Shown here: positions 8,473 through 27,128 of the stretch, one piece after another
Layout: every line of letters starts with the position of its first letter
Numbering within the stretch: the stretch's first letter is position 1
Assembly: GCA_025450635.1 (NCBI GenBank)
Contig: JANWHA010000034.1
Coordinates: 1 to 61,188, forward strand
Reading direction: 5' to 3'
Source of the DNA: Croceibacterium sp.
GTDB lineage: Bacteria; Pseudomonadota; Alphaproteobacteria; Sphingomonadales; Sphingomonadaceae
Length of the DNA: 61,188 bases
Translations under genes and position numbers: made by a program
The notes under the pieces: generated by a model
Database searches by the model: none
Told to the model about the DNA's origin: nothing
What the model saw: only the letters and a program-made list of their open reading frames with translations

Positions 8473-8498
8473 AGTTGACAACTCCGCCACCGCCGGGC

Positions 8499-10805: not shown

Positions 10806-10809
10806 CGAG

Positions 10810-11331
10810 TCAGTTCTTCTTCAACGGGCCCATGCCGAGGCCGCGCCGGTAATTGAGAACGATCGAAAGCCTTGTCAGCCCCGGACCGGCAACCACCTCC
10901 GCGTGGGCCGCCTTGGGTTTGCCCCAACTCAGCTTGGGGTTGCCGGCGAAGCCAACCCCATCTTCGGACCAACCGAATTTTCTGTTCCTGTCACGATCGT
11001 GCAAGAGCATGACGCTGTATCGGCCGGGACCTGGAAGACGGACGCACAGCTCGACCGGATCGGCTGCGGGCACCGGCACTTCGACGCGGCGAAAAGTCTT
11101 GCCCTCGCTCACCAGAACGTTGTCGTCTTGCAGGAAATCGTGATCGTTCGCAGGGTACACCTCGAGCTTCAGGTTGCCCTTGCGGTCCTTCAGGCCCACG
11201 GGATCGACAATCAGGGCCGCCCCTTGTTCGTTCGCTCGGCAACGGCCCTCCGCTTTCCCTAGGTCCGGCGTAGAAGGGATCATGGCGGCTGAAACGAGCG
11301 GAATTGTCGCGAGAACAGCCGTCGCGATCAT
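10810..11331 (-). CDS. DUF2141 family exported protein
   Basis: Signal-peptide-like N-terminus; GLKDRKG, PGRYSVMLLHDRDRNRKF, DGVGFAGNP resemble DUF2141. Confidence 0.78.
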   Translation of the reverse strand: MIATAVLATIPLVSAAMIPSTPDLGKAEGRCRANEQGAALIVDPVGLKDRKGNLKLEVYPANDHDFLQDDNVLVSEGKTFRRVEVPVPAADPVELCVRLPGPGRYSVMLLHDRDRNRKFGWSEDGVGFAGNPKLSWGKPKAAHAEVVAGPGLTRLSIVLNYRRGLGMGPLKKN

Positions 11332-12281
11332 TCGGCAGATTCCTTCCTTATCAGGTCCGTCAGGGCGAAAGTGCTGCCGACCATCAGGTGGGACAGAAGG
11401 ATCAGCCCGGCCATCAACGTTAGCAGCGACGCAATCTCGACGTCATGTCCGAGCATGAAAACGGCGAGGCCGGCGAATACCACATCTTTGTTGGGCACGA
11501 AAGGCAAGCGCGAGATCAGCAGTCTGATCGTCGCCAACAACAACCACCAGACGACCGGTATCGACGGCAGGATCAGGTGCCACAGAAAGGCCGACAAGCC
11601 GGTAACGGCAATGAGGCGGATGATGTGCATCGCAAAGATGAAGCGCAAGTCGGGTCGCGGCAGAGAGAATATCTGGCGCCGCCACAAGAGCATGGCCATG
11701 GAGGTCAGCAACACGACGGTGAGCGACAGGACGACGGCACGCGATTGCAAGCCGAGCTGGGTGGCGGAGGCAAGCGGCCAGGCCACCATCAGCATTAGCA
11801 GGGTGACGATGTTGCCGGCCACGGCTGACAGGATGGTGACGTCCTTGACGGCGCCGAACGGCGCTGCCTCCAAGTTCAGTTTGCGCCGCGCCCAGGCGTA
11901 GAAATAGACCTCGCCGAGATAGCCGAGCAGCAGTTCGTTGTAGATCAGCTTGCGAATAAGGGCGGCGAAAGCCGGTGGTCCGACACCCCACAGACGCCGG
12001 AAGATCAGCCATTCGGTGATCGGCTGGGCGAAATAGCTGAGGGCAAACACCGCCCAGAAAATCGGCGATACGGGTATCAGCGAGATGATCGCGCGCACAT
12101 TGACGCCGCGAATCTCGTGGATCACCGCGGCGATGACCAGCAGCGACAGGATCGAGCTCAGCAGCCGGGTGCCGCCCGGCCAGCGCGGCCTGTCCTGCGG
12201 GCGCAACGCCGCGGTCATGTCCTCCGGCACGCGCACGAGGTATGCTTGGTAGACGGTCCCGCCGTCCTTAGCAGATAGCAA
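11328..12281 (-). CDS. Multi-pass membrane protein, flippase-like/lysylphosphatidylglycerol-synthase TM-like
   Basis: About eight hydrophobic segments, NELLLGYLGEVY motif; ATGA-coupled to DUF2141. Family assignment is inference; start uncertain (TTG 12281 or ATG 12218). Confidence 0.6.
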   Translation of the reverse strand: MLSAKDGGTVYQAYLVRVPEDMTAALRPQDRPRWPGGTRLLSSILSLLVIAAVIHEIRGVNVRAIISLIPVSPIFWAVFALSYFAQPITEWLIFRRLWGVGPPAFAALIRKLIYNELLLGYLGEVYFYAWARRKLNLEAAPFGAVKDVTILSAVAGNIVTLLMLMVAWPLASATQLGLQSRAVVLSLTVVLLTSMAMLLWRRQIFSLPRPDLRFIFAMHIIRLIAVTGLSAFLWHLILPSIPVVWWLLLATIRLLISRLPFVPNKDVVFAGLAVFMLGHDVEIASLLTLMAGLILLSHLMVGSTFALTDLIRKESAE

Positions 12282-12425
12282 TTTGCGGCTTCCCTCTGTC
12301 TGATCGCCATGATGACGCCGCCGATCGAGTCCTTCCTCATGCGGCGTGGCGACATTTCGGCTCCGTGACGGGCTGAAACTCCAATTAGCACGGAAATATC
12401 GCGAAAGCTCTAAAGGGGCGGATGT

Positions 12426-13160
12426 TCAGGCGAGCAGCGCCGAGTAATGGCTGACGATCCGCTTCGAGGCGAAGGCTTTCAGCGTGCGATCGATGCTGGC
12501 GAGTATCGACGGCTTGGTCAGGTCGCCGGGATGAACGGCGATCCGCACGTTCGCCAGCGGCTGCAACGCGGTGCGCGCGAGCGAAGCGAAGGCCACCGAC
12601 GATGCCGTCCGCGCTCGAGTGCGGCTGGCCCAGGTGATGACCGGACCGCGAGCGACCGTCGCGCCCGTCCGGGGGCACCAGACACGCATGTGGTCTTCGG
12701 CCAGCTCAAAGCCGCTCGCGGCCAGGGCTTCGATTGCGCCGGGCCCATAGAGCCATGCCGGTGCGACGAACCCCGCGACGGGACGACCGATAATGTCTTC
12801 CAGCAACGCCTTGCCGTCGGCCATCCGCTGCCCCGCCTGCTTCGCGGAGAGGCCCAGGAACTCACCTTCCCCAGCGGTCATGTGCCTGGCTTTCAGGCGC
12901 GCAAGGCCCGAGTGCCTGGCTTCATCACGGTGAAACCATCCATGAACGAACATCTCGACACCCTCGGTGGCCCACGCGCGGAGTTTGCCGCAAAACCGCG
13001 GATCGCCGGCCAGCGGGCTTTCGCCCCAATGGTTCGGGACTACGAGCATCGCGAAATGGCGGCTGCCGAGCGACGCCGTCAGGCGATCCGACAGCCGTTC
13101 GATCTCGAGCGAAAAACGCGGTCCGACGTCGTGGATAGAGACAAGAACCCGCCTGTGCAT
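12426..13160 (-). CDS. DUF2334/polysaccharide deacetylase-like protein
   Basis: LVSIHDV, LVVPNHW, HGWFH, GEGEFLGL, GFVAPAWL, RIAVHPGD (NodB-like metal motifs). Confidence 0.82.
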   Translation of the reverse strand: MHRRVLVSIHDVGPRFSLEIERLSDRLTASLGSRHFAMLVVPNHWGESPLAGDPRFCGKLRAWATEGVEMFVHGWFHRDEARHSGLARLKARHMTAGEGEFLGLSAKQAGQRMADGKALLEDIIGRPVAGFVAPAWLYGPGAIEALAASGFELAEDHMRVWCPRTGATVARGPVITWASRTRARTASSVAFASLARTALQPLANVRIAVHPGDLTKPSILASIDRTLKAFASKRIVSHYSALLA

Positions 13161-13197
13161 CGTCGGGCCCCTACAGCCCGCGACCCGAACCGCAAGA

Positions 13198-13602
13198 TCA
13201 ACCTTGCCTGCGGTACGGAACGAACTCGTTCATCACCATCGCCGGCCCGGGCATGCCGGTCGAGGAATCGCGCAGGTGGACAATATCCTTGGAGCACAGC
13301 TGGTCGCCCCAGATCTTGAACACCGGTATATCGCTCCAGGTCAGGAAGTTCACGCCATCGGGCCGGCTCACGTAGTAGGTGTCGCCGACCCTGAACACCA
13401 GCGCCGTGCGCTCGACGACCTGCATGTCGCGCCGCTGGTTCATGTCAAGGCATTGGACCGGTTTGCCGGCGGTGCGCCCATCGAGCAACCTGGCGAGCTT
13501 CGCTTCGCCGCCATCGGCGTTGCCGTGCGCGGCCATCGCGGGCACGGCGCCGGCGAGAACACCGAGGCCGAAGACGGCAGGGATCAAGCTTTTCATTTTC
13601 AT
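13198..13602 (-). CDS. Small secreted hypothetical protein
   Basis: Signal peptide ending PAMA; GKPVQCL..QLCSKDIV..FVPYR; GGAG-type RBS upstream. Confidence 0.75.
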   Translation of the reverse strand: MKMKSLIPAVFGLGVLAGAVPAMAAHGNADGGEAKLARLLDGRTAGKPVQCLDMNQRRDMQVVERTALVFRVGDTYYVSRPDGVNFLTWSDIPVFKIWGDQLCSKDIVHLRDSSTGMPGPAMVMNEFVPYRRQG

Positions 13603-13698
13603 CTCTCAATCTCCCTATGTCCGGGAATACTGAGCCCGCCGGCCTTAACCGGCCCTGACCGCCGAAAGGGCCTTGCCGAGCGGCCACGCTTGGCCTTA

Positions 13699-13712
13699 AG
13701 GTAGCGCTAACA
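13699..13712. promoter_or_regulatory. LacI/XylR-type operator (site 1)
   Basis: AGGTAGCGCTAACA in the divergent intergenic region, 34 nt upstream of the sugar porter ATG; overlaps a candidate -10 (TAAGGT, 18 nt after TTGCCG at 13673). Confidence 0.85.
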
Positions 13713-13746
13713 TAATGTGCCGGCAAGGCGCGGTGGGGAGGAAAGC

Positions 13747-15204
13747 ATGAACACTTCGCGGACCGGCGTGAACATGGCGCTGATTGGGGCGATCGTTGCG
13801 GTGGCGACGATCGGCGGCCTGCTGTTCGGTTACGACAGCGGCGCGGTCAACGGCACCCAGACCGGCCTGACCGCCGAGTTTCATCTCGACGACTGGTGGC
13901 TCGGCCTGACGGTCGGCTCGCTGCTGATCGGTTGTGCCGTCGGCGCCTTCCTCGCCGGTCGCCTGGCCGATGCCATGGGGCGCCGGATGGTGATGATCAT
14001 CGCCGCGGTCCTCTTCCTGTTCGGTGCGCTGGTCCAGGGCCTCACCGGCACCCACCTGATCTTCATCATCGCGCGTTTCTCCGCCGGCATGGCGGTCGGC
14101 GCGGCTTCGGTGCTCTCGCCGCTGTACATCTCCGAGGTCGCTCCGGCGAAGATCCGCGGCCGCCTAACCACCGTGCAGCAGGTGATGATCATCTCGGGCC
14201 TGACGGCGGCCTTCGTGGTCAATTATTTCCTCCAGCAGGCCGCCGGCGGCGATTCGCTCAACATGGTCGGCGGCCGCGCGGCATGGCGGTGGATGTACCT
14301 CGCCCAGGCGGCGCCGGCGGCGGTGTTCCTGATCGCCTTGTTCTTCATTCCCGAAAGCCCGCGCTACCTCATCAGCCGCAAGCGAGAGGCCGAGGCGACC
14401 TCGGTGTTGACCAAGCTCTTCGGTGCCGACGAAGCCGCGCGCAAGGTCGGCGAGATCAAGGCCAGCTTCGCCGACGATCACCGCCCGCGGCTGGCCGACG
14501 TCACCGCGCCCGGCACGCTGTTCCGCCCGATCGTGTGGGCCGGAATCATGATCGCTACCTTCCAGCAGTTCGTCGGCATCAACATCATCTTCTACTACGG
14601 CGAAACGCTGTGGAAACTGGCCGGCGTCTCAGAATCGGTCGCGCTCGAGCGCAACATCATTTCCGGCGTGGTGTCGATCGCCGCGGTGCTCGCCGCGCTC
14701 CTGCTGATCGACAAGATTGGTCGCAAGCCGTTGTTGATGATCGGTTCGATCGGCATGGGCGTGACGCTCGCGGCTATGAGCTGGGCCTTCAGCGGCGCCG
14801 CCACCGATGCGGCGGGTAACCTCTCGCTGTCGCCTTCAGCCGGCTGGGTCGCGCTGGTGGCGGCCAATCTCTACGTGGTCTTCTTCAACTTCAGCTGGGG
14901 CCCGGTGATGTGGGTCCTGCTCGGCGAGATGTTCCCCAACCAGATGCGCGGCTCGGCGCTGGCTGTCGCCGGCTTCGCGCAGTGGGGCGCCAACTTCCTC
15001 GTCGTGCAGGCCTTCCCGCCGATGGCCGGCAGCCTCGGCCTCGCCGGAACCTACGCTTTCTACACCGTGGCCGCCTTCGTCAGCTTCTTCCTCGTCAAGG
15101 CGCTCATCAAGGAGACCAAGGGCAAGGAGCTCGAGGAAATGGAAGGCTGGACCGCGCCGGCCGCGGCGGGCGATGCGGAGGTCGCGACTACCGAGCTGGG
15201 ATGA
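13747..15204 (+). CDS. Sugar porter family MFS transporter (XylE/GalP-like)
   Basis: GGLLFGYDSG, DAMGRR, YISEVAPAKIRG, PESPRYL, QQFVGINIIFYY, WGPVMWVLLGEMFP, ETKGKELEE; ATG 13747 after GGAGG. Confidence 0.93.
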   Translation: MNTSRTGVNMALIGAIVAVATIGGLLFGYDSGAVNGTQTGLTAEFHLDDWWLGLTVGSLLIGCAVGAFLAGRLADAMGRRMVMIIAAVLFLFGALVQGLTGTHLIFIIARFSAGMAVGAASVLSPLYISEVAPAKIRGRLTTVQQVMIISGLTAAFVVNYFLQQAAGGDSLNMVGGRAAWRWMYLAQAAPAAVFLIALFFIPESPRYLISRKREAEATSVLTKLFGADEAARKVGEIKASFADDHRPRLADVTAPGTLFRPIVWAGIMIATFQQFVGINIIFYYGETLWKLAGVSESVALERNIISGVVSIAAVLAALLLIDKIGRKPLLMIGSIGMGVTLAAMSWAFSGAATDAAGNLSLSPSAGWVALVAANLYVVFFNFSWGPVMWVLLGEMFPNQMRGSALAVAGFAQWGANFLVVQAFPPMAGSLGLAGTYAFYTVAAFVSFFLVKALIKETKGKELEEMEGWTAPAAAGDAEVATTELG

Positions 15205-15256
15205 GCCGTCCGCGCGGCGCTGGCGTGAGCCAACGCGCCGCTCTAGGCTGGCCGGC

Positions 15257-16780
15257 ATGAGCGAGCGCCCCGCCCCCACCCGCGTCGTCGTCCTCGGTGG
15301 CGGCACGGCGGGATGGATGAGCGCGGCCGGGCTGGCCAAGCTGCTTGGCCCGCTGGTCACCGTGACGCTGGTCGAAAGCGAGGACATCGGCATCGTCGGC
15401 GTCGGCGAGGCCACGCTGCCCCACATCCGCGGCTTCGTCGAACGGCTCGGGATCGACGAGGCCGAGTTCATGCGCGCGACCCACGCGACCTACAAGCTGG
15501 GCATCGATTTCCGCGACTTCGGCCGCATCGGCGACAGCTACGTCCACCCTTTCGGCACCTTCGGCGAGGAAGCCGCGGGCGTGCCGTTCCATCACTACTG
15601 GCTGGAGTTGCAGCGACGGGGAATGGCCGAGGACCTGGGTCATTATTCGCTCGCGGTTTCGGCCGCGCTGGCCAGCAAGTTCCGCCCGCCGACCGCCGAC
15701 GGGAGTCTCACCTCGACCTATGGCTATGCCTACCAGTTCGATGCGACGCTGTTCGGCCCGTTCTTGCGGGAGCACGCGACCAAGAACCGTGGGGTGGAGC
15801 GGATCGAGGGCAAAGTCGTCGAGGTACGGCAAGACCCGGAAAGCGGCGACGTGACGACGCTCGTTCTCGAAAGCGGCAGGGAAATCGCCGGCGACCTGTT
15901 CGTCGATTGCTCGGGCTTCCGCTCGTTGCTGCTCGGCAGCACGCTTGGCGAGAGGTGGGAAGACTGGTCGCCGTGGTTGCCTTGCGACCGCGCCGCTGCC
16001 CTCCCGTGCGCCCACATCAGCGAAGACTTCGCGCCGGTGACGTCGGCAATCGCCATGCCGGCCGGCTGGCGCTGGCGGATTCCGCTGCAGCACCGGATGG
16101 GCAACGGCTACGTGTTCTCAAGCCAGTTCATCTCCGAGGACGAAGCTTGCGCGGTGATCAGCGACGCGGTCGACGGGGAGCTGCTGGCCGAGCCGCGCGT
16201 TCTCCGCTTCCGCGCGGGACGCCGCTCGAAGAGCTGGAACCGCAACGTCATCGCCGTCGGGCTGTCGAGCGGCTTCCTCGAACCGCTCGAATCGACTTCG
16301 CTCTACCTGTCGCAGATGGCGATCACCTACCTGATCGAGCTGTTCCCGGTCGGGGGCCAAATTGACGCCCGCGACCGCGACGAGTTCAACCGACTGGTCG
16401 ACATGGAATACGACCGGGTGCGCGATTTCCTGATCCTGCATTTCCACGCGACCGAGCGCGACGATTCCGAATTCTGGAACCACGTCCGCACGATGCAAGT
16501 GCCCGACACGCTGGCCGAGAAAATGACCCTCTGGCGCGAAACGGGCCGGATTGAGAAATACTCCGACGGGCTGTTCTACGATGCGAGCTGGATCGCGGTT
16601 TACCTTGGCCAGGGCGTCTGGCCGCAGCGGCACGATCCGCGCACCCGCCTACCGGCCCCCGAACAGATTGCTCGCGCTTTAGCGCGGCTGCGTGAGGCGA
16701 TGATCGAGGAAGTCGCCGCGATGCCGGGGCACCGCGAGTTCCTCACCGCCAACGTCCAAAGGCTGGCGGCCGCGCCATGA
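15257..16780 (+). CDS. Flavin-dependent halogenase homologue (tryptophan halogenase family), Hal1
   Basis: GGGTAG, GVGEAT, catalytic-Lys motif ATYKLGI, DCSGFR, WRWRIP, GFLEPLESTS; ATG 15257. Confidence 0.92.
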   Translation: MSERPAPTRVVVLGGGTAGWMSAAGLAKLLGPLVTVTLVESEDIGIVGVGEATLPHIRGFVERLGIDEAEFMRATHATYKLGIDFRDFGRIGDSYVHPFGTFGEEAAGVPFHHYWLELQRRGMAEDLGHYSLAVSAALASKFRPPTADGSLTSTYGYAYQFDATLFGPFLREHATKNRGVERIEGKVVEVRQDPESGDVTTLVLESGREIAGDLFVDCSGFRSLLLGSTLGERWEDWSPWLPCDRAAALPCAHISEDFAPVTSAIAMPAGWRWRIPLQHRMGNGYVFSSQFISEDEACAVISDAVDGELLAEPRVLRFRAGRRSKSWNRNVIAVGLSSGFLEPLESTSLYLSQMAITYLIELFPVGGQIDARDRDEFNRLVDMEYDRVRDFLILHFHATERDDSEFWNHVRTMQVPDTLAEKMTLWRETGRIEKYSDGLFYDASWIAVYLGQGVWPQRHDPRTRLPAPEQIARALARLREAMIEEVAAMPGHREFLTANVQRLAAAP

Positions 16781-18228
16781 GCGAGGCGCGCGAGCTTCCG
16801 CAACGGATCGTCGTCGCTGGAGACGGCCCACTCGGCGTGCTTGCCGCCATCGCGCTGCGGAAGGCACTGCCGCGCACCGAGGTGATCGTCATCGCCATCC
16901 CGCCCGATCCCGCGGCGTTCGCCGAGCGGATCGGTACGGCGCTGCCCTTCACCAATCGGCTGCACGACCGGCTCGGCATCGAGGAAGCGGCGCTCGTGCG
17001 TCAGGCGGGCGCGAGCCACCGCTTGGTCATGCGCTATTTCGGCGGCGGCGGGCCCGGCCAGGCCGGCGCCGCGGGATATGGCGCGTCGATCGACCCGGCG
17101 ATGAAGACCGCTTTCGCCCGCGAATGGGGCGGCGGGCCCCGCAATGCCGAAACCGGCGCCCCGCCGCGCAGCCTGGGCGAAGTGCTCGCCGCAGCTGGCC
17201 GCTTCGCCCCTCCTTCCGGCGAAGCGGAAGCCCCGCTCGCCGAGCTCGACTACGCGCTGCGCTGGAACGTGCCGGCCTACCGCGACCTGCTGATCCAGAT
17301 CGCCCAGCGGCTGGGGGTGCAGCACGAGCGCGCGGTCATCACCGGCGTCGTGCCCGACGGCGCGGGCGGGATCGCGGCCCTGGCGATGGACAGCGGGGCG
17401 CAGATCGCGGCCGACCTTTATGTCGATTGCAGCGGATCGGGCGCCGTGCTGCTCGACCAGTTGCCGGAGCATCGCTGGCTCGATGGGCGCGGGACGTTCC
17501 ACGCCCGCGGCCTCGCCATCGCCGCGCTGGCGGGGCCGATGCTGGCGCTCGAGGACCGGGCGACCTGGACTCCGCTCGGCTGGCGTTGGGAGCTGGCCGG
17601 CCGCGACGGGCTGCAGGCGCTGCTGGCGGTCCCCGGAGGTGCATCCGACGAGGCCATCGCGGCTGCGCTCGGCAGCGAGCCAGCGGCGATCGTACCGTTC
17701 GCCCCAGGAAGGCTCGATGCGGCCTGGCTCGGCAATGTCGTCGGGCTGGGCAGTTCGGTGGCGGAGCTCGAACCGCTCGGCGGCATCGCCCAGGACCTTG
17801 CCCACCGCCAGCTTGCCCTGTTGCTTGAGCTTTTGCCCGGCCGCACGGTGGATCCAGCCGAGCGGGCCGAGTTCAATCGCCGCTCGGCGCTGATGGCCGA
17901 TCGGGCCGCCGACTGGATCGCCGCCCATTATGCCGCGCCGGCGCCGACCGCTCGGTTCCCATCGCTCAACCTGTCGCCCGACCTCTCGCGGACGCTCGAT
18001 CAATTCATTCGGCGCGGGCGGGTCCCCTTCGCCGAGGAAACCCCGATGCTGGTGCAGGAATTCGGCACGCTGTTGCAGGCGATCGGAGTGCCGCAAGGCG
18101 AAGGGCCGATGGCCGCGGCCGGCGAAGGATCGGGCGAGGCCGCGGCGCGTGCCTTCGAGGAGCGCGCGCGAGCCGCGCTGAATGCCGCGCCGCCCTACGC
18201 CGAATGGATGCAGCGAGCCGTCGCCTAG
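16777..18228 (+). CDS. Degenerate tryptophan-halogenase-like protein, HalX
   Basis: Collinear with Hal1 (GDGPLG, ADLYVDCSG, LEPLGG, ERAEFNR), but ASHRLV replaces ATYKLG and WRWELA replaces WRWRIP; ATGA-coupled to Hal1; no frameshift. Confidence 0.82.
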   Translation: MSEARELPQRIVVAGDGPLGVLAAIALRKALPRTEVIVIAIPPDPAAFAERIGTALPFTNRLHDRLGIEEAALVRQAGASHRLVMRYFGGGGPGQAGAAGYGASIDPAMKTAFAREWGGGPRNAETGAPPRSLGEVLAAAGRFAPPSGEAEAPLAELDYALRWNVPAYRDLLIQIAQRLGVQHERAVITGVVPDGAGGIAALAMDSGAQIAADLYVDCSGSGAVLLDQLPEHRWLDGRGTFHARGLAIAALAGPMLALEDRATWTPLGWRWELAGRDGLQALLAVPGGASDEAIAAALGSEPAAIVPFAPGRLDAAWLGNVVGLGSSVAELEPLGGIAQDLAHRQLALLLELLPGRTVDPAERAEFNRRSALMADRAADWIAAHYAAPAPTARFPSLNLSPDLSRTLDQFIRRGRVPFAEETPMLVQEFGTLLQAIGVPQGEGPMAAAGEGSGEAAARAFEERARAALNAAPPYAEWMQRAVA

Positions 18229-19238
18229 CCGACGATCTTGCGCAGCGTCGCTCGCAGGCGCGCGAACAGCTCCGGCGTCGGCGCGCCCATCATGCCCCGG
18301 GCGTGCTCGGGCAAGTGCGCGGCCGGATCTCCGTTCGATTCGAAGATGTAATAATCGAGCATCGTGCGCCACACCGCGCGCTGCTGGGGCGGCAAGTGCC
18401 TGAAGGTCAGGATGTTGTGCAGCATCGCGTCGTACGGCGTCGAAATGTCCTTCGGCACGTCGTTCCACCAGTAATTGACGAGGATGCTCACGGGCTCGAG
18501 CGAGTCGACGCCGTGCCACCACATGTAGGGAATGTAGATCGCGTCTCCGGGTGACAGCTCGGCCCGCTGCGCCGTCGCCCACGCGGCGGCGTAACGTGGG
18601 TACCGCTGGAGATCGGGTTCCTGCATGTCGACCATGCTGACCGGGGTCCCGGCAGGGGTCAGCTCGAAAGGGCCGGGATAGAGGTTGACCACTTGTTCCG
18701 GCGGAAACAGCGTGAACCGCCGCCGCCCGGCGATGACGCAGCCGACATTCTCCATCAGGTCGCAATGCGGCGAGACGCGGATGCGATTGCCGATCCAGAT
18801 GCGGGGGGCAACATCGGTCAGCAGCGGCAGCACGTTCGCTTCGCCGAACGCCGGCAGCACGTCGGGGATCACCTCGGACTGCATCGCCATCGCGGGCGGA
18901 CGCGGATCGTCGGAAACCTGCAACAGGTCGCGCAGGAATTGCTCCATCTGTCCGCGGCCGGAAACGAAATTGAAGCCGGTGATGTCGCCATTGTAGAAGA
19001 AGCGGCCGCCTTCCTCGGGACGTGCGGCAATCGCTCCGACCGGCTTTCGCGGGCCGCAACCGATCAGGTAATCGACGATCGCCTTGTCGCTTTCGAGCGC
19101 CGCGGCGACCGCGGGCCAGTCGCGGACCACGCCGCGCATGACCACCGGCTCGTTCGCCGGCCTGATCTCCTCATGAAAGCGCGCAAAGTCGACGTCCGCG
19201 ACCTCGCGGATCGGCTTGGGCGGCGACAGTTCGCTCAT
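18225..19238 (-). CDS. JmjC/cupin-like (Cupin_8, Pass1-related) Fe(II)/2OG oxygenase homologue
   Basis: EPVVMRG..DWPA, RIWIGN, H-x-D (PHCD), GRRRFTLFPP, LSPGDAIYIPYMWWHGV, VNYWW; ATG 19238 overlaps the Hal2 stop (ATGA). Confidence 0.9.
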   Translation of the reverse strand: MSELSPPKPIREVADVDFARFHEEIRPANEPVVMRGVVRDWPAVAAALESDKAIVDYLIGCGPRKPVGAIAARPEEGGRFFYNGDITGFNFVSGRGQMEQFLRDLLQVSDDPRPPAMAMQSEVIPDVLPAFGEANVLPLLTDVAPRIWIGNRIRVSPHCDLMENVGCVIAGRRRFTLFPPEQVVNLYPGPFELTPAGTPVSMVDMQEPDLQRYPRYAAAWATAQRAELSPGDAIYIPYMWWHGVDSLEPVSILVNYWWNDVPKDISTPYDAMLHNILTFRHLPPQQRAVWRTMLDYYIFESNGDPAAHLPEHARGMMGAPTPELFARLRATLRKIVG

Positions 19239-20770
19239 GCGATGCGTTGGAGCGAGGCGTCGATGGCCGAACCGTTCATCTCGAGGAACGCCTCTTGCGT
19301 CGGCATCTGCGCGGCCGTCCGCGCGACGACCTCGCGGATATGCGCGAGCCGCTCCAGCGTCTCGGCATCGGACAGGATATCGGCGACGGGGTGGTAGCCG
19401 CCGGGCGCGATGCCCTGCCCCACCAGGACGGACAGCCAGCTCGTTTCCGTGAACAGCTCTTCGTGCTCGCGAAAGACCCGCCCCGACGAGCGGAACATCG
19501 CCAGCTTTTCCCGTAGGCCCTCCGGCGGTTCGAGGTTGCGGCAGTAATCCCAGAACGCGGTGTCGTCGCGTTCGACCGCGCAATAGTGCAGCACCAGGAA
19601 ATCGCGGATGTCGACGTACTCGCGCTCGGTCAGCTCGTTGTAGCGCTCGATCTCCGCCGCGCCGAATTCGCGGCTGGGGAACAGCGTCATCAGCCGGGCG
19701 ATGCCGGTCTGGACGAGATGGATCGAAGTCGATTCGAGCGGCTCGAGAAAGCCGCCCGCGAGGCCCAGGGCGACGACGTTCTTCTCCCACGCTCGCGCCC
19801 GGTGGCCGGCGGTGAAGCGCAGCCGGTTGGGCTCCGCCAGGGGCTCGCCGTCGAGGTTCGCCAGCAGCAGCGCGATGGCCTCGTCGTCGCTCATGTGGGC
19901 CGAGCAATAGACGTGGCCGTTGCCGATGCGGTGCTGCAGCGGGATGCGCCATTGCCATCCGGCGGGACGCGCGGTCGAGCGCGTCAGCGGCTCGCGATCG
20001 CCGGCGAGCGTGCAGGGAATGGCGACCGCCCGATCGCACGGCAACCATTGGCTCCAGTCGACGAACGGCACGCCGAGCTCCTGCCCGATCAGGAGCGCCC
20101 GGAAGCCGGAGCAGTCGATGAACAACTCGCCCTCGATGCGCTGTCCGCTTTCGAGCACGACCGCGGTGACGAACCCGCTCTCTCTGTCGCGCTCGACGGC
20201 GACGATCCGGCCCTCGGTGCGGATAGCCCCCTGCCGTTCGGCCCGCCCGCGCAAGTAGCGCGCGTAGCGCCCTGCATCGAACTGAAAGGCATAACCGAGC
20301 TTGCTGAGCGGGGAATTCGGGTTACCCGGCGTCGGCCGTGCCATGCGGGTCATCTTAGCGGCGACGGCGGCGATGGAATATTCGTCGAGCTCGCTCTTGT
20401 CCCCCAGCGTGCGACCCTTGAGCCAATGGTGGTGGAACTCGACGCCCATCATGTCGAGGCCGATGAAGCCGAACGGATGGAAGTAGCGATGGCCGATCCG
20501 CGTCCAGTCGATGAACTCGATGCCGAGCTTGTAGGTCGCGTGGGTCTCGCGGACGAACTCGTTCTCGTCGATGCCGAGCATCGCGTTGAACAAGTTGATC
20601 TGCGGGATGGTCGCCTCGCCGACCCCGACGGTGCCGATGGCTTCGGATTCGACCAGCTCGATGGTCAGGCCGGGGAAGCTCCCCATGATCTTCGTCAGCG
20701 CGGCCGCGGCCATCCAGCCGGCGGTGCCGCCGCCGACGATCACCACCTTGCGGATCGGGTCCGCGATCAT
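19235..20770 (-). CDS. Flavin-dependent halogenase homologue, Hal2
   Basis: GGGTAG, GVGEATIP, ATYKLGIEF, WQWRIP, GFLEPLESTSIH; ATG 20770 overlaps the Hal3 stop. Confidence 0.93.
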   Translation of the reverse strand: MIADPIRKVVIVGGGTAGWMAAAALTKIMGSFPGLTIELVESEAIGTVGVGEATIPQINLFNAMLGIDENEFVRETHATYKLGIEFIDWTRIGHRYFHPFGFIGLDMMGVEFHHHWLKGRTLGDKSELDEYSIAAVAAKMTRMARPTPGNPNSPLSKLGYAFQFDAGRYARYLRGRAERQGAIRTEGRIVAVERDRESGFVTAVVLESGQRIEGELFIDCSGFRALLIGQELGVPFVDWSQWLPCDRAVAIPCTLAGDREPLTRSTARPAGWQWRIPLQHRIGNGHVYCSAHMSDDEAIALLLANLDGEPLAEPNRLRFTAGHRARAWEKNVVALGLAGGFLEPLESTSIHLVQTGIARLMTLFPSREFGAAEIERYNELTEREYVDIRDFLVLHYCAVERDDTAFWDYCRNLEPPEGLREKLAMFRSSGRVFREHEELFTETSWLSVLVGQGIAPGGYHPVADILSDAETLERLAHIREVVARTAAQMPTQEAFLEMNGSAIDASLQRIA

Positions 20771-22329
20771 GCGGGCACTGCCTCGGCGGCGTCGGCCCAC
20801 GCGCCGGCGGCGCGCAGGAACTGGTCCTGGCTCGGCAGGCCCTCGACCGCGGCGCGGAAATCGCCCCGCATCGCCGCCATCGCCTCGGCGACCTTTGCCT
20901 CGTCGAGCGAATCGGCGGTCGGGTCGTATGCTTCGGGCCACAGGTTCTGGCCGAGCATGACGGCGACCCAGCTGGTCACACCGAACAGCTCGGCGCCTTC
21001 GCGGAAGATGCGGCCGTGGAGCCGCCACAACTCCATCTTGCGCGCGAGGCTGTCCGGGATGTCCATATCGCGGACGTAGCGCCAGAACGGCGTGTCGCCG
21101 CGTTGGGTTGCCTTGTAGTGCAGGATGACGAAGTCGCGCACATCGTCGTAAAGCTCGCCCATACCTTTGTTGTATTCGTCGCGCTCCAGGGGGCTGATGG
21201 GTTTGCCGGGGAACAGCGCGAGAAGCCGCTGGATGCCGTTCTGAATGAGGTGAATGCTGGTCGATTCGAGCGGTTCGAGAAAGCCCGAGGACAGGCCCAG
21301 CGCGACCACGTTGTGGCTCCAGCTGCTCTTTCGCCGCCCGGTGGCGAAGCGGATCGTGCGCGGCTCTGCCAGCACCTCGCCCTCGAGGTTGGCCAGCAGC
21401 AGGCGGCGAGCCTCGTCCTCCTCCATATAGCGGCTGGAGAAAACGTGGCCGTTGCCCATGCGGTGCTGCAGCGGAATGCGCCATTGCCAGCCGGCCGGCC
21501 GGCCGGTACAGCGGGTGAACGGCTCGGGCGGCCCGGCCAGCGCCGTCGGCACCGCGATCGCGCGGTCGCACGGCAGCCAGTGGCCCCAATCGTCCCATTC
21601 CGCGCCGAGTTCCTGGGCGATGAGCAGGCCGCGGAAGCCCGAGCAGTCGATGAAGAAGTCGCCCTCGATCCGCTCGCCACCGTCGAGCTCGACCGCCGTC
21701 ACATCGCCGCTTTGGCCGTCGCGGTGAACCTTGACGATCATCCCTTCGCGCCGTTCGATACCCTGGCGTTCGGCCAGCCGGCGCAGGAACTTCGTATAGA
21801 GGCTGGCGTCGAAATGGAACGCGTAAAACAGCCGCGACAGCACCGACTTGGCGTTCTGGCCCGGGCGGCCGAAACGGCGTAGCGCGGCCGCCACCGCGTT
21901 GACGCAATAATCGTCGAGAGGCCCCGGATCGCCACCGTTCATCCTGGCGCGCAGCCACAGCTGGTGGAACGGGATGCCGTGAAGGTCCTGCCCGTAGGTG
22001 CCGAACGGATGGAGATACCTTTCACCCTCCCGCGCCCAGTCTACGAACTCGATCCCCACCTTGAAGGTGCCATACGTCGCCTTGAGGAACGCGTTCTCGT
22101 TGATGTCGAGCATGGTGTTGAAGTTGAGGATCGGCGGAATGGTCGCCTCCCCCACGCCCACGGTGCCGATCGCATCCGATTCGACCACCACGATCTGGCG
22201 CCGCCCGTTGTTGAGAAAACGTGAGAAGGCGGCGGCCGCCATCCACCCGGCCGTGCCCCCGCCAACAATCACAACCCGGGCAATTTCGGTATCGCTACCG
22301 CGACTTGCGCCGTCGCCTGGGCGATTCAT
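20767..22329 (-). CDS. Flavin-dependent halogenase homologue, Hal3
   Basis: GGGTAG, GVGEATIP, GTFKVGIEF, WQWRIP, GFLEPLESTSIH; ATG 22329 with GGAGG 7 nt upstream. Confidence 0.93.
   Translation of the reverse strand: MNRPGDGASRGSDTEIARVVIVGGGTAGWMAAAAFSRFLNNGRRQIVVVESDAIGTVGVGEATIPPILNFNTMLDINENAFLKATYGTFKVGIEFVDWAREGERYLHPFGTYGQDLHGIPFHQLWLRARMNGGDPGPLDDYCVNAVAAALRRFGRPGQNAKSVLSRLFYAFHFDASLYTKFLRRLAERQGIERREGMIVKVHRDGQSGDVTAVELDGGERIEGDFFIDCSGFRGLLIAQELGAEWDDWGHWLPCDRAIAVPTALAGPPEPFTRCTGRPAGWQWRIPLQHRMGNGHVFSSRYMEEDEARRLLLANLEGEVLAEPRTIRFATGRRKSSWSHNVVALGLSSGFLEPLESTSIHLIQNGIQRLLALFPGKPISPLERDEYNKGMGELYDDVRDFVILHYKATQRGDTPFWRYVRDMDIPDSLARKMELWRLHGRIFREGAELFGVTSWVAVMLGQNLWPEAYDPTADSLDEAKVAEAMAAMRGDFRAAVEGLPSQDQFLRAAGAWADAAEAVPA
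22287..22300. promoter_or_regulatory. Possible auxiliary operator inside the 5' end of Hal3
   Basis: CGGTATCGCTACCG, near-palindrome with 3 mismatches to the operator consensus, 148 bp from site 2. Confidence 0.35.
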
Positions 22330-22406
22330 CCACACCCCTCCAAAATATCTGTTCGTCTCTTAGAGAAACTCTTGCCAAAGGCCATCTTACCGCATAATCA
22401 GCGCGG

Positions 22407-22435
22407 TTGACAAAGCAAAAGCCTGCCGAAAAATT
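22407..22435 (+). promoter_or_regulatory. Candidate sigma70 promoter of the TonB-dependent receptor
   Basis: Perfect TTGACA (22407-22412), 17-nt spacer, AAAATT running into operator site 2. Confidence 0.5.
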
Positions 22436-22448
22436 GGTAGCGCTAACA
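22435..22448. promoter_or_regulatory. LacI/XylR-type operator (site 2)
   Basis: TGGTAGCGCTAACA between divergent Hal3 and the TBDR; matches the xylose-regulon operator as I recall it for Xanthomonas/Caulobacter XylR. Confidence 0.9.
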
Positions 22449-22464
22449 TGGGGAGGATAAGCGC

Positions 22465-25400
22465 GTGGCCAAGTCACGGTGCGATTATCATGGGGCAACA
22501 ACCGCTAGCGCCCGCGAACTGCGCCTCTCGCTGAGGGCAGGCGCTTCCGTCCTCGCGATCGGGGCGCTCTTCGCCTCGGCCGGAGCTTACGCTCAGGACA
22601 AGACGCCACCGGCGCAAACCGGCAATGCCGGCGCCCCGGCCGCGGCGCCCGAAAAGGTCGATTCCAACGCGATCGTCGTCACCGGCATCCGCGCCAGCTT
22701 GGCCAACGCCCAGGTAATCAAGCGCAATTCGGACACCGTCGTCGATGCGATCACCGCCCAGGACATCGGCTCGCTTCCCGACCGTTCGGTCACCGAAGCG
22801 CTGCAGCGTGTGCCGGGCGTGTCGATCAATCGCTTCGCCGGCAGCAACGATCCGGATCACTTCTCGGTCGAAGGCTCGGGCGTGGTCATCCGCGGCCTCA
22901 ATTTCGTGCGATCGGAATTCAACGGCCGCGACGCCTTTTCCGCCGGCGTGGGCGGCCAGTCGCTCAACTTCGCCGATGTTCCGTCAGAGCTTCTCGGATC
23001 GGTCATCGTCGCGAAGAACGCGACCGCCGACATGATCGAGGGCGGTCTCGCCGGCACGGTCAACCTCAACACGCGCAAGCCGTTCGACAACAAGGGCTTC
23101 CATATCGCCTTCGACGCCGAGGGCAACTACGGCGACATGGAGAAGAAGTGGTCGCCCACCGGCTCGCTGCTGATCAGCGACACGTGGGATACGCCCGGCG
23201 GAAGCACGTTCGGCCTGCTGGCCGACGTTTCCTATTCGCGCATCCGCAGCCGCGCCGACGGCATCCAGGTCACCAACTTCCAGACCCGTGACGCGGCGAT
23301 CGTCACATTCATCAACCAGGGCGGACAGCGGATCTGCCGCAACCAGCTTCCGGGCACCACCGACACCACGACACTGCCGCCGGGCGGCTCGTACTGCGGC
23401 GCGCCCGAAACGCCGGGGGCCGATGGCCGTGCCGATCTCTTGCCGACCGCCTTTGCGCCCCTCGGCGGCCAGTTCCGCACGCAGGACTACGATCGCAAGC
23501 GCGATGGCGCCGCGCTCGCCGCCCAATGGCAATCGCCTGACCGCAACTCGATCCTGACGGCCCAATTCATCCGTTCGCACACGACGAACGCCTGGGGCGA
23601 GCACACGTTCGAGACGGCGCCGGACTTGTCGGAATACAACACCTATCCGCTCGGCTGCCACCAGAACGGCAACGGCCCGCCTACTTCGACCGGCGGCGGC
23701 ACCACACGCGCGGAATGCCGCATCAATGCTAATGGGCAGTTCTATTTCGCTGGCAACGATCAGGGTAACGGTTACGCCCCGTTGGCGGGCCAGACCTTCG
23801 ACAATTATCAATATGATGCCAATGGCCTGTTTGAGAGCGGCTATATCACCCTGCCGGGCAGCGGCTGGCGAACTGCCGGTAGCGGCAACGGCAACAGCAA
23901 CTGGGTGCCTTCCGGCGGCCTGCAACAATCGCTTTCCCGCCGCCAGGTGCTGGAAAAGAACCTCAACAACGATTACGGCCTGAATTTCCAGACCAAGTTC
24001 GGCGACCGTTGGGACCTGAACGTGGACGGCGACTACACGACCTCGCACCACCAGGTGCAGGACGTCAGCGTCTTCGGTTCGACGTTCGCCGACGAACAGT
24101 TGGACCTTACCGGCAATCTGCCGGTCGTGATCCCGCACAAGCCGAACACGCTGTCCGCGACATGGGCAGCCCCGAACTCGACCATAGCCGGCGAAACAGA
24201 CGCTCAATACTTCGCCGACCAGCGCGTGCAGTTCTGGCGCGCGGCGATGGATCACTTCGAGGACAGCACCGGCCACGAAGGCGCGGTGAAGGCAGACCTG
24301 ACCTATCACTTCGACGACAATTCGTTCCTCAAGACTTTCAAGGTCGGTGCGCGTTATGCCGACCGCAACCAGACGATCCGCTACACGACCTATAACTGGG
24401 GTGCGCTGAGCGAAGTGTGGTCCGGCACGGCGGTTTCGCTCGCCCAGTTCGGCGGCGACCAGACGAATTTCTATACTTTCCCCGATTTCTTCCGCGGGCA
24501 AACCCCGGGCCCGGTCGGCGGCTACTACTACAACGGCGACCTGATTCACGATTACAACAACGCCGCCACATTCTTCGACCAGATCAACGACGTCTGGCAC
24601 CAGCAGAATGGCGCCGGCGCGGCCAACCGCTGGCTTCCTGCGTCCGAACGGCCAGGCGCCATTGCGGGAACGCCATACCTGCCGAGCGAAGTCCAGAAGG
24701 AACACCAGAAGGACTTCGACGGTTACGCGATGCTCACCTTCGAAAGCATGGGTGGCATTCGCGTGTCGGGCAATATCGGTGCCCGGTTCGTTCGCACCAC
24801 CCTGGATTCCTTCGGCACGACGACGGTTCCGACGCGGGGCACTTTGGGTATTACGCAAGACTACAATGCCCGCTGTCCGCTCACGGTCCCGCAGGGCTCA
24901 CCGCCGGGGACGCCTGCCACGCGAGGCGGCGGCGTCTGCTCCCTCACGCCAGAGCAATACGCGACGCTTCAGCAATGGGCGCCAATCAACGCGAACTATA
25001 TTTCGAGCACGGCCAAGAACGACTACACTTACGTTCTTCCCAGCTTGAACCTGAAGTTCTCCGTGACCGACGACGTGATCATGCGTTTGGCGGCATCGGA
25101 GGTGATGACACGCCCGGATTCGGACCTTGTCCGGAACTATCTGACGACGGGCATCGACGGAAACAACAATATCACCTCCTCCGTCGGCAACCCGTACCTC
25201 AAGCCCGCAACCGCCTGGCAGCTCGACCTGACCGGCGAATGGTACTTCTCGCGGGTCGGCTCGCTTACCGTCGACTTCTTCTATAAGGACGTGAAGAACT
25301 TCTTCTATCAGGCCTTGATCGATATCCCGATCACCAACAACGGCGTCACGTTCCCTGTGCAGGAACGCGGCCCGGCCAACTACAACGGCCACGGCAAGAT

Positions 25401-25914
25401 CAAGGGCTTCGAAATCGCGTACCAACAAACGTTCGATTTCCTGCCCGGACTGCTCAGCGGCTTCGGTGTGAGCGCGAACTATTCATATGTCCAAAGCTCG
25501 GGCTTGCCGAATACCTTCCTGAACACCGGCTCACCGGTCAACGTGAGCACGATCCCGCCCGGCAAGCTGCCGCTCGAAGGCCTTTCGAAGCACAACGTGA
25601 ACCTCGAGGCATTCTACGAAAAAGGCCCGGTCAGCCTTCGCGTCGCCTACAATTGGCGCTCGAAATTCCTGCTCACCGCGGCGGACGTGATCTTCCCGTA
25701 CACGTCGATCTTCGACGCCGCGACGGGCCAGCTGGATGCGTCGGCGTTCTTCAACGTCACGAAGAACATCAAGATCGGCGTGCAGGGCGTGAACCTGCTC
25801 AACGAGGTCACGAAGACACTGCAAGCCTACACCGGCGACCCGAACAAGCTGGCGCCGCGGTCCTACTTCATGAATGACCGGCGCTATTCATTTATCGTCC
25901 GGGGCAGTTTCTAG
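22465..25914 (+). CDS. TonB-dependent receptor (Caulobacter/Xanthomonas carbohydrate-type), 1149 aa
   Basis: Signal peptide ..GAYA-Q, TonB box AIVVTGIRASL, DAITAQDIGSLPDRSVTEALQRVPGV, IEGGLAGTVNL, GNPYLKP, terminal Phe; GTG after GGAGG. Confidence 0.95.
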   Translation: MAKSRCDYHGATTASARELRLSLRAGASVLAIGALFASAGAYAQDKTPPAQTGNAGAPAAAPEKVDSNAIVVTGIRASLANAQVIKRNSDTVVDAITAQDIGSLPDRSVTEALQRVPGVSINRFAGSNDPDHFSVEGSGVVIRGLNFVRSEFNGRDAFSAGVGGQSLNFADVPSELLGSVIVAKNATADMIEGGLAGTVNLNTRKPFDNKGFHIAFDAEGNYGDMEKKWSPTGSLLISDTWDTPGGSTFGLLADVSYSRIRSRADGIQVTNFQTRDAAIVTFINQGGQRICRNQLPGTTDTTTLPPGGSYCGAPETPGADGRADLLPTAFAPLGGQFRTQDYDRKRDGAALAAQWQSPDRNSILTAQFIRSHTTNAWGEHTFETAPDLSEYNTYPLGCHQNGNGPPTSTGGGTTRAECRINANGQFYFAGNDQGNGYAPLAGQTFDNYQYDANGLFESGYITLPGSGWRTAGSGNGNSNWVPSGGLQQSLSRRQVLEKNLNNDYGLNFQTKFGDRWDLNVDGDYTTSHHQVQDVSVFGSTFADEQLDLTGNLPVVIPHKPNTLSATWAAPNSTIAGETDAQYFADQRVQFWRAAMDHFEDSTGHEGAVKADLTYHFDDNSFLKTFKVGARYADRNQTIRYTTYNWGALSEVWSGTAVSLAQFGGDQTNFYTFPDFFRGQTPGPVGGYYYNGDLIHDYNNAATFFDQINDVWHQQNGAGAANRWLPASERPGAIAGTPYLPSEVQKEHQKDFDGYAMLTFESMGGIRVSGNIGARFVRTTLDSFGTTTVPTRGTLGITQDYNARCPLTVPQGSPPGTPATRGGGVCSLTPEQYATLQQWAPINANYISSTAKNDYTYVLPSLNLKFSVTDDVIMRLAASEVMTRPDSDLVRNYLTTGIDGNNNITSSVGNPYLKPATAWQLDLTGEWYFSRVGSLTVDFFYKDVKNFFYQALIDIPITNNGVTFPVQERGPANYNGHGKIKGFEIAYQQTFDFLPGLLSGFGVSANYSYVQSSGLPNTFLNTGSPVNVSTIPPGKLPLEGLSKHNVNLEAFYEKGPVSLRVAYNWRSKFLLTAADVIFPYTSIFDAATGQLDASAFFNVTKNIKIGVQGVNLLNEVTKTLQAYTGDPNKLAPRSYFMNDRRYSFIVRGSF

Positions 25915-25947
25915 ACGACGCCGCGTTGCTCCTTTCGCGGCTCTCTC

Positions 25948-25986
25948 AAGGCGCCGCCGTTCCGAAAGGGGCGGCGGCGCTTTCTT
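25948..25986 (+). terminator. Rho-independent terminator after the TBDR
   Basis: GCGCCGCCGTTCC-GAAA-GGGGCGGCGGCGC (13-bp stem with two G-U pairs, GNRA loop) followed by TTTCTT. Confidence 0.8.
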
Positions 25987-27128
25987 CAGGCGGCAGTGAA
26001 GGCCCGGGCGAGCGCCGCGCGCAGCGGCTTCGGCGTGTAATCGTCGCCGTAGGGCGTCCCTCGCACCTCGAGCTTGTCGGCGCGCGGGGAAAAACCCTGC
26101 AACCAGCTGAACTTGTCGACCATGCCCCAGGCGAGGATGTCGCCGAGCTGCCCGTAATCGAGCATCACGTCGAAGTAGCGCCGCGCGAAGTCGGCGACCC
26201 GCTCGTCGCGCCGCGCGATATCGCCGGGCAGCGCCTTGTCCTTCACGTCGAACTCGGTGATCAACAGCTTGTAGCCCATGCCCACAACCTCGTCGAGGAA
26301 ATGGCGCCACTCGGTCTCGAGATAGGGGCCGACGCCGCTGGCCGGATCGAGCGAAAACATCTCGATGTGCGACTGCACCCCGAGGGCGTCGACCGGCGTG
26401 CCGCGCTTGCGCAGACCCTCCAGCAGCCGCAGCACCCCGACGCAGTGGCCGCGCGAGCCCGGCTCCCAGCTCATGAAATCGTTGTAGACCAGCTGCGCGT
26501 CCGGCAGCTGCTGGCGAGCGGTATGGAAGGCGAGGTCGAGCAGCGCCTCGGGGCTGCCGAGCGCCTGGGTGACGTTGTTGACCCGCAGGCCGCGTGTGGC
26601 GCCGTCGACCGCCTCGTTGATCACGTCGTAGCTGTGGATCACGCCGCGATAGCGGCCGGTTACGGTGCGGATGTGCGTGGTCAGCAGCCGCTCGGCCTCA
26701 CGTGCGGGGTTGGCGCCGAAGTCATAGTTGGTCAGCCACCTGGGGAAGCGCTCCGGCCGGTCCCAGAATAGCGTGTGCCCGCGGACCGCCAGCTTGTGCG
26801 CCTGCGCCCACGCGACGATCGCGTCCATCTTGGCGAAATCGAACTTGTGGGGCGCCGGGCGGGTCGCCTGCCACTTGAGCTCGTTCTCGGGCACGATCAC
26901 GCCGCATTCACTGGCGACGATCGCCGCGTAGTCGGGATTGCCGATCCCGCCGCCGCGCCGCCCGCCGATGGCGCTGCCGAAGCGGCGCCCCTTGCGCATC
27001 GCCAGTGCGTTGAGCGAGGGCGAAGGAACCGTCGGTGCGACGGAAGCGACAAGCGGCGAGGCATGGGCTGCCAGCGGCATCGCGGCGAGCCCGGCCAGGG
27101 TTTGGCGTCTGGTGACGGAAAGGCTCAT
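25986..27128 (-). CDS. GH10 endo-1,4-beta-xylanase, Tat-exported
   Basis: Tat motif TRRQTL; PENELKW, RGHTLFW, YDVINEA (acid/base), YNDF, GVQSH, ITEFDV (nucleophile); ATG 27128 coupled to the MFS stop. Confidence 0.93.
   Translation of the reverse strand: MSLSVTRRQTLAGLAAMPLAAHASPLVASVAPTVPSPSLNALAMRKGRRFGSAIGGRRGGGIGNPDYAAIVASECGVIVPENELKWQATRPAPHKFDFAKMDAIVAWAQAHKLAVRGHTLFWDRPERFPRWLTNYDFGANPAREAERLLTTHIRTVTGRYRGVIHSYDVINEAVDGATRGLRVNNVTQALGSPEALLDLAFHTARQQLPDAQLVYNDFMSWEPGSRGHCVGVLRLLEGLRKRGTPVDALGVQSHIEMFSLDPASGVGPYLETEWRHFLDEVVGMGYKLLITEFDVKDKALPGDIARRDERVADFARRYFDVMLDYGQLGDILAWGMVDKFSWLQGFSPRADKLEVRGTPYGDDYTPKPLRAALARAFTAA

Follow-up and report, generated by a model that had tools for sequence, protein, structure and literature searches.

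Relation to described halogenase blocks

Iyer et al. (2010; PMC2938197) described, in the text cited here, a gene neighbourhood in which a JmjC protein, one to three halogenases and a TonB-dependent receptor (TBDR) occur together and which 'might additionally encode' SapC, and proposed that it makes a halogenated siderophore-like product. Related halogenases of the non-tryptophan 'group C' have been studied as single proteins, namely BrvH (6FRL), Xcc4156 (6Y1W) and the Pseudoalteromonas L11 enzyme (9LUQ). A further point of comparison is the XylR regulon of Xanthomonas campestris, whose XylR site, the xyl-box, is quoted from Dejean 2013 in PMC7748154. Here we analyse a halogenase block of Croceibacterium sp. 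in a stretch of 61,188 nt (JANWHA010000034.1), called the window below; the host genome assembly is 74% complete. The block encodes three intact halogenases (Hal1, Hal2 and Hal3), a cupin, a TBDR, a sugar porter and a halogenase homologue stripped of its catalytic residues, HalX (Table 1).

Like the neighbourhood of Iyer et al., the window has the JmjC HxD triad, three intact halogenases, an adjacent TBDR and an alphaproteobacterial host. Unlike it, the block has no SapC, carries a fourth homologue that is catalytically stripped, and is arranged as two converging operons with a sugar operator; the halogenases in the cited text are described as lysine-keeping, and no degenerate copy is mentioned there. 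We regard the locus as very probably a variant of the known TBDR/halogenase/JmjC block that lacks SapC and contains a pseudo-enzyme. An earlier annotation of this DNA, here called the sequence-only reading, had put it forward as an undescribed system. That claim is not supported, since the JmjC gene with one to three halogenases and a TBDR, with or without SapC, appears in the cited text of 2010, and the close relatives BrvH and Xcc4156 have been characterised as brominases of indole. What is already known is the module with its sugar control; what this locus adds is the form that lacks SapC and pairs with a pseudo-enzyme. The loss of catalytic residues in HalX and the absence of SapC from the block go beyond the sequence-only reading. 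Its statement that the block has no established physiological role agrees with our literature search, which was thin on subscription papers and excluded supplements.

SapC is absent from the block and from the 74% complete host genome. It occurs in 2 of the 79 loci L016-L094, both times in a separate upstream block, and in 5 of 40 other halogenase loci, none of them among the 20 that carry a degenerate gene. A genome-wide loss of SapC was rejected, as all 36 genomes of the family (G001-G036) encode it somewhere; SapC could therefore act in trans. Only 18 of these 36 genomes have a halogenase match at E 1e-25, which points to a role of SapC outside halogenase modules in sphingomonads. The Xanthomonas xytA locus presumably holds halogenase, Pass1 and SapC genes under a xyl-box.

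Conservation of HalX without catalytic residues

An alignment search for HalX among species-level genomes gave 71 loci, which are kin and not independent samples. All loci with taxonomy named to order or below belong to Sphingomonadales, and the close named homologues come from Croceibacterium and Altererythrobacter. The catalytic Lys and the catalytic Glu are each absent from all 70 homologues scored, with Arg at the Lys position in 68 of them, and WxWxIP was found in 0/69. HalX keeps GxGxx[GA] and the aspartate of DC[ST]G, and the residues S80-H81-R82-L83 are 95–100% conserved. The structure model is confident (predicted local distance difference test, pLDDT, 89.6) and matches BrvH with a template modelling (TM) score of 0.83 at 22–23% identity. 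A decaying pseudogene was rejected as an explanation, given the intact open reading frame (ORF), 413 homologues at E 1e-20 and the confident fold. Judged by its residues, HalX is a conserved pseudo-halogenase.

A wider degenerate family was surveyed by searching representatives of 50% clusters with a profile, a query that enriches for degenerate sequences. Of the 150 matches listed, 132 top matches were 400–600 aa long, and in 129 of these one or more of the three motifs are missing. The profile also captures intact enzymes, so that its tally of 167/301 cannot be read as the number of pseudo-enzymes. With a HalX profile, 400 class-wide genomes (three candidates scored per genome) gave one further match (E 1e-60), again from the same family.

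HalX might instead be a neofunctionalised FAD (flavin adenine dinucleotide) enzyme with monooxygenase or oxidoreductase activity, or else bind a ligand as a homodimer; its order with Hal1 would then go back to one ancient tandem duplication. The retained GxGxx[GA] and DC[ST]G aspartate and the conserved S80-H81-R82-L83 would fit this, as would the loss of WxWxIP, which blocks monooxygenation in halogenases. Across the degenerate family, however, active-site positions drift freely (the Lys column reads R in 73, K in 20 and S in 9 of 132 sequences, with others in the rest), and branches in the tree are very long. Loss of catalysis fits this pattern better than a new shared chemistry, and we consider such an independent role of HalX quite unlikely.

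Linkage of Hal1-clade genes to degenerate homologues

Gene order is almost fixed across the HalX loci. Hal1 lies immediately 5' of HalX in 68/68 loci (three with HalX at a contig end were omitted), the cupin is at its usual place in 56/62, and a TBDR lies inside the fetched stretch in 59/71. We then asked how Hal1-like genes are arranged in 40 other sphingomonad halogenase loci. The Hal1 clade was defined in advance, as the group that unites Hal1 with the intact gene of locus L021, and it comprised 20 genes in these loci. Every one of the 20 is followed by a degenerate homologue (19 whole, one in two fragments), none of the 62 other intact halogenases precedes a degenerate gene, and all of the 19 degenerate genes lie behind a Hal1-clade gene. 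In six loci (L147-L152) the upstream gene was unseen when the region was chosen, and all six blind predictions of the pairing held. The clade is also marked by single residues: H56 is present in 27/27 members vs 2/77 outside it, and G438 in 27/27 vs 1/77.

The literature search found no halogenase pseudo-enzyme or heterodimer, with the same limits on subscription papers and supplements. When longer, fused forms of HalX were sought, a single weak match came up, which is weak evidence either way.

The other loci offered some observations of their own. In genome G626, L158:2100-12900 has a TBDR (62% identical to that of the window) divergent from one operon that holds a Hal1-clade gene, a degenerate gene, two intact halogenases and a cupin; the two converging operons of the window may be a rearrangement of this single-operon order. 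At L023:14245-15363, a gene of the fatty-acid-desaturase family, a possible substrate clue, lies within a module of four halogenases, a pseudo-enzyme and a cupin. Lone halogenases divergent from a TBDR in L111, L112 and L114 have WxWxVP in place of WxWxIP and keep Lys and Glu. A 914-aa sequence (P0271) is a second, unrelated long form beside the fusions described below.

Predicted Hal1:HalX interface

The predicted Hal1:HalX pair scored 0.91, against 0.01 for the best of three controls. Model runs agreed in at least 92% of contacts, with a partner pLDDT of at least 88; the pass mark for such models is reached by 116/157 solved pairs and 2/215 mismatched pairs. On Hal1, the modelled interface touches residues 55, 99-101 and 433-441, at or beside substrate-site motifs, as well as three of the eight Hal1-clade marker residues (154, 435 and 462). 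The predicted interface of HalX is more conserved than the rest of the protein (0.85 vs 0.74; 77 homologues, p 6e-4, burial not controlled). That a degenerate and an intact halogenase also occur fused in nature, in four full-length sequences, speaks for such a pairing as well. We give a HalX-Hal1 heterodimer about an even chance.

Candidate substrates of the block

Hal1, Hal2 and Hal3 are mutually 49–55% identical. GxGxxG, the catalytic Lys, WxWxIP and EPLEST are kept in 65/65 Hal1, 61/62 Hal2 (one is truncated) and 60/60 Hal3 orthologues, and Hal1-3 also have the catalytic Glu and the halide loop, as in BrvH, Xcc4156 and the L11 enzyme, whose fold HalX shares without their catalytic residues. 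These three are the top PDB matches of Hal3 (9luq, 6Y1W and 6FRL; E 1e-146 to 1e-153). Hal3 scores 490–516 bits to the BrvH group vs at most 289 to tryptophan halogenases, and a tryptophan halogenase or pyrrolnitrin-type pathway was therefore rejected. Unlike PrnA, RebH and PyrH, Hal1-3 lack the Trp4 lid motif, the tryptophan-binding motif as defined in the cited text of PMC8269204 (alignment inspected by eye). BrvH itself is reported to be inactive on tryptophan and slow on indole (2.5 mU/mg), with an open site that 'could allow larger substrates' (PMC5945002, as cited). BrvH and the Xcc enzymes brominate indole derivatives, and the cited text of PMC7336383 gives their native substrates as unknown.

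The nearest solved relatives of the cupin are FIH1, JMJD5 and JMJD7 (E 5e-17 to 3e-12), with which it shares the HxD...H triad; HxD and WWH are present in 56/56 orthologues. The match to FIH spans only about 125 residues, and the cupin has Arg where FIH has a Lys, which is a 2-oxoglutarate ligand. NCBIfam matches to the protein-modifying flavoenzymes QhpG and LodB were far below cut-off and were not counted. As the sequence-only reading had noted, there is no nonribosomal peptide synthetase or polyketide synthase nearby: no such family appeared in a Pfam scan of the 45 + 11 window ORFs. The same general ORF and Pfam scan is all that bears on a short precursor peptide, for which no aimed search was made. 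A flavin reductase was not found within the block; one is encoded on another contig of the genome. The 74% complete assembly holds no further halogenase or Cupin_8 gene.

The same set of enzymes also occurs beside TBDRs that are only 29–43% identical to that of the window, with varied glycosidases and at other LacI loci. Action on a xylan-specific substrate is less likely for this reason. The open-site enzyme class, the protein-hydroxylase relatives of the cupin, the lack of biosynthetic genes and the recurrence beside distant TBDRs with different glycosidases together point to a peptide or protein substrate. By this analogy, we would place the substrate among large molecules, a peptide or protein being the first choice; it is the weakest step of our proposal, well short of an even chance.

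We propose the following mechanism. An electron-rich ring would be halogenated by Hal1-3 with O2, probably bromide as the halide, and reduced FAD (FADH2) that a general reductase supplies. HalX would join Hal1 in a dimer built on the customary halogenase interface, where its part would be to shape the recognition of the substrate or to supply it. The three halogenases and the JmjC dioxygenase would act on a large substrate in the cytoplasm, the likeliest target being aromatic residues of a peptide or protein. Taken whole, with a SapC-free variant in which Hal1-3 and the JmjC protein modify such a substrate and HalX partners Hal1, this reading is the one we favour, at somewhat less than an even chance.

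The chief alternative is that the halogenases and cupin halogenate and hydroxylate a small glycan-borne aromatic of plant or algal origin (indole, phenolic or ferulate-type), for detoxification or signalling, with HalX as a binding or regulatory subunit. The bromination of indole derivatives by BrvH and the Xcc enzymes speaks for it; so do the esterases of the window, the FAD monooxygenase encoded at 1290-2459 and the operators that link the block to glycan supply. The low activity of BrvH on indole, the occurrence of the same enzymes beside distantly related TBDRs with different glycosidases and the resemblance of the cupin to protein hydroxylases make it unlikely.

The proposal of Iyer et al. 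would have the block make a halogenated siderophore-like or other secondary metabolite from amino acids, with the TBDR importing the product. It was made for this very neighbourhood in the cited text of PMC2938197. In the window, however, the TBDR has an exact xyl-box and is followed downstream by a GH10 gene, a transporter gene and a GH3 gene, the block holds no synthetase or exporter, and Hal1-3 lack the Trp4 motif. We judge a siderophore-like product improbable here.

Several points weigh against the peptide or protein reading with HalX as partner of Hal1. The protein substrate rests on analogy. The cupin is absent from its place in 6/62 loci, which means that the five enzymes do not form a single obligate pathway. 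Of the 40 other loci, 17 were chosen for a visible degenerate or tandem halogenase and three more came through the HalX search, and the loci are kin and not independent. The largest tree supports the Hal1 clade weakly (Shimodaira-Hasegawa-like approximate likelihood ratio test, SH-aLRT, 55.6), as against 99 in a smaller one. In many loci a Hal3-like gene follows the degenerate gene, and in a natural fusion of a degenerate with an intact halogenase (four sequences of 984–985 aa, P0204, P0273, P0274 and P0276, in one cluster and 91–99.9% alike) the downstream intact half resembles Hal2 (53%) more than Hal1 (46%); the partner of a HalX-type protein could thus be another paralogue. Finally, the modelled complex resembles the solved halogenase homodimer. 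Since such homodimers have been solved (PMC7336383, as cited), the pair score may show only the family interface that HalX has kept, or an arrangement that the predictor has memorised, and the pair model does not separate Hal1:HalX from HalX:HalX or Hal3:HalX.

It is conceivable, though on balance doubtful, that sphingomonads have widespread heterodimeric flavin halogenases, in which an intact Hal1-clade enzyme and a fast-evolving pseudo-halogenase that gives specificity in place of SapC mark a sugar-induced, TonB-linked protein halogenation. If so, the sluggishness of BrvH-type enzymes assayed on their own, and the lack of a known native substrate for them, would have an explanation. Should HalX be a specificity subunit, family-wide screens of single halogenase genes that filter on catalytic motifs would have missed it. 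Blocks of the TBDR/halogenase/JmjC type are widespread in alpha- and gammaproteobacteria; no job has been assigned to them since 2010, and their enzymes are used as biocatalysts. The strict pairing of Hal1 with a pseudo-enzyme offers a comparative handle, loci with the pseudo-enzyme against loci with SapC, and the conserved operator points to a likely inducing condition for strains that are cultured and harmless.

Probable sugar control of the operons

Operators were searched for with TGGTAGCGCTAACA, allowing up to two mismatches on both strands, and 100 shuffles served as control. Sites of this 14-bp operator lie at 13699, 22435, 33259, 45329, 53298 and 57498, giving 10 strand-wise matches in the window vs a shuffle mean of 0.05 (largest 1). 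The first two stand at the halogenase operons; the other four adjoin GH3/GH67, the FAA-hydrolase/GH43 junction, a GH3 and uxaC/manD. The sequence-only reading had seen the same operator at the halogenase operons and at xylan, xylose and glucuronate genes, and this is borne out by the six sites. The window operator TGGTAGCGCTAACA is identical to the published xyl-box. As in the X. campestris regulon, it accompanies a xylan locus with TBDR, GH10, GH3, GH43, GH67, uxa/uxu and LacI genes (PMC7748154 and PMC3826837, as cited), here in a sphingomonad host. Sites with one or two mismatches occur on five other contigs, several of them palindromic. Palindromic sites related to the operator (TGGTAGCGCTACCA and variants) lie at C32:17132, C33:1363, C41:508 and C56:7708; we read these as putative further members of the same or a sister LacI regulon.

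Operator 1 is kept in 60/62 loci with a visible porter start and operator 2 in 61/61 with a visible Hal3 upstream region, as compared with 79/3550 random 200-nt windows of the same loci. A loss of the operator in orthologous loci, which would have spoken against the sequence-only reading, was thus not seen. The -35 TTG of the porter promoter is found at the same spacing in 59/60 loci (shuffles: mean 3.3, max 11), and operator 1 overlaps the -10, the classic position of a repressor for the porter. At the second site, the Shine-Dalgarno (SD) sequence of the TBDR begins 1–9 nt past the operator in 58/61 loci, and TTG[CT][CA]A lies 57–68 nt 5' of the operator in 51/61. Operator 2 thus stands between a conserved element and the TBDR ribosome-binding site and lies in the TBDR leader. 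Consensus-like promoter sites of the divergent region, 22407-22434 (+) and 22413-22384 (-), are two vs 1.3 expected and weak alone. By position, the two operators appear to belong to the porter and the TBDR. The LacI protein would repress these two promoters until a xylose-type inducer, a xylan breakdown product, arrives.

The halogenase genes could still be passengers, transcribed from promoters of their own that are largely independent of sugar, with only the porter and the TBDR under the operators. A -10 element a few nt before a start codon that has no SD is the pattern of a leaderless promoter. TAnnnT was found 5–8 nt before a candidate start in 22/65 Hal1 genes, or 20 after dropping two that use the porter stop TAG (shuffles: mean 2.4, max 7). 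The signature was seen before 3/59 porter, 2/61 Hal3, 0/44 Hal2 and 0/58 HalX genes. Hal1-clade genes in other modules have it in 0/19 cases (the twentieth gene had no anchor), and it is therefore specific to the porter-Hal1 junction. The distance from operator 2 to the Hal3 start, 105 nt in the window with a median of 130 and a range of 27–174 (62 rows), also favours passenger genes. On the other side, a consensus scan scored no terminator between porter and Hal1, and the strict leaderless signature is missing in 43/65 loci. Moreover, Hal1-HalX follows GH3-GH10 behind an operator in L072, L075 and L077, an operator lies 27 nt before Hal3 in L069, and xyl-box-like sites stand at most 450 nt from 7/19 other Hal1-clade genes, in two cases at 21 and 34 nt. 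We find it rather unlikely that the halogenase genes are passengers. The hairpin in the porter-Hal1 gap was not significant (z -1.7), and the consensus scan for promoters and terminators gave no excess over shuffles.

In sum, the part of the sequence-only reading that placed a real, conserved xylose-type operator at these operons stands, but its placing of the halogenases under that operator is weakened by the sequence support for an internal Hal1 promoter and by the distance of site 2 from the Hal3 start. The leaderless signature and the distant Hal3 start, set against the missing terminator and the operator-linked loci, leave direct operator control of the halogenase genes likely as far as sequence can tell, and this sugar control may be partial. 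The halogenase operons would follow the sugar in part, through read-through from the porter and the shared divergent region, and would probably have promoters of their own as well.

A second near-palindrome, resembling TGTGGCAA(A/T)TTGCCAACA, lies about 30–60 nt 5' of Hal3 in L071, L079, L083, L085-L088, L090, L092, L067 and L082, and forms related to TGTTGCAAA occur upstream of Hal3 in other loci. It was not seen in the shorter spacer of the window. It is possibly the site of a second regulator or a set of overlapping -35 elements.

Features of the window

The gene calls and orientations match the two converging operons of the sequence-only reading, porter-Hal1-HalX and Hal3-Hal2-cupin, with the TBDR divergent. 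The ATGA overlaps that it gave for the enzyme genes are present at Hal1-HalX, Hal3-Hal2 and Hal2-cupin. The HalX and cupin genes overlap at their stop codons, and the porter-Hal1 junction is a 52-nt gap with no overlap. Rfam gave no match across 13000-26500.

Table 1. Genes and control elements of the halogenase block and its presumed regulator in the window.
Feature	Position	Strand	Evidence and remarks
Sugar porter family transporter of the major facilitator superfamily (XylE/GlcP-like)	13747-15204	+	PF00083; TIGR00879 above cut-off, XylE below cut-off
Hal1, flavin-dependent halogenase, catalytic motifs intact	15257-16780	+	Motifs GxGxxG, K80, WxWxIP, EPLEST; clade preceding a pseudo-enzyme
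HalX, pseudo-halogenase	16777-18228	+	Halogenase fold; GxGxxG kept; Arg82 replaces catalytic Lys; no catalytic Glu, no WxWxIP
Cupin, JmjC/Cupin_8 2-oxoglutarate dioxygenase	18225-19238	-	Triad H158-x-D160...H242
Hal2, halogenase, catalytic motifs intact (K81)	19235-20770	-	Pfam, motif alignment
Hal3, halogenase, catalytic motifs intact (K90)	20767-22329	-	Top PDB matches 9luq, Xcc4156, BrvH
TBDR, Xanthomonas/Caulobacter type	22465-25914	+	TIGR01782 657 bits, cut-off 310
LacI-family repressor, likely the cognate XylR from its place in the locus	35420-36517	+	PF00356, PF13377
Predicted sigma70 promoter of porter (TTGCCG -18- TAAGGT)	13673-13702	+	-10 overlaps operator 1
Operator 1, xyl-box with 1 mismatch	13699-13712	.	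Kept in orthologous loci
Operator 2, exact xyl-box	22435-22448	.	Directly 5' of TBDR ribosome-binding site
Divergent promoter region	22330-22464	.	TTGCCA at 22372 conserved, oriented to TBDR
Porter-Hal1 gap: GC hairpin, then TAGGCT (15244-15249) 7 nt before ATG	15211-15256	+	No SD; candidate leaderless promoter for Hal1-HalX

Three ORFs of the xylan locus, 36680-38299 (-), 47052-48221 (-) and 53319-54680 (+), had no Pfam match or one below threshold, and the first two have homologues that return in related loci. Two further regions are unrelated to the halogenase block: 3370-7170 encodes a signalling trio of extracytoplasmic function (ECF) sigma factor, FecR and TBDR, and 7288-13160 holds two GT4 glycosyltransferase genes together with LptF/G-like, DUF2141 and DUF2334 genes.

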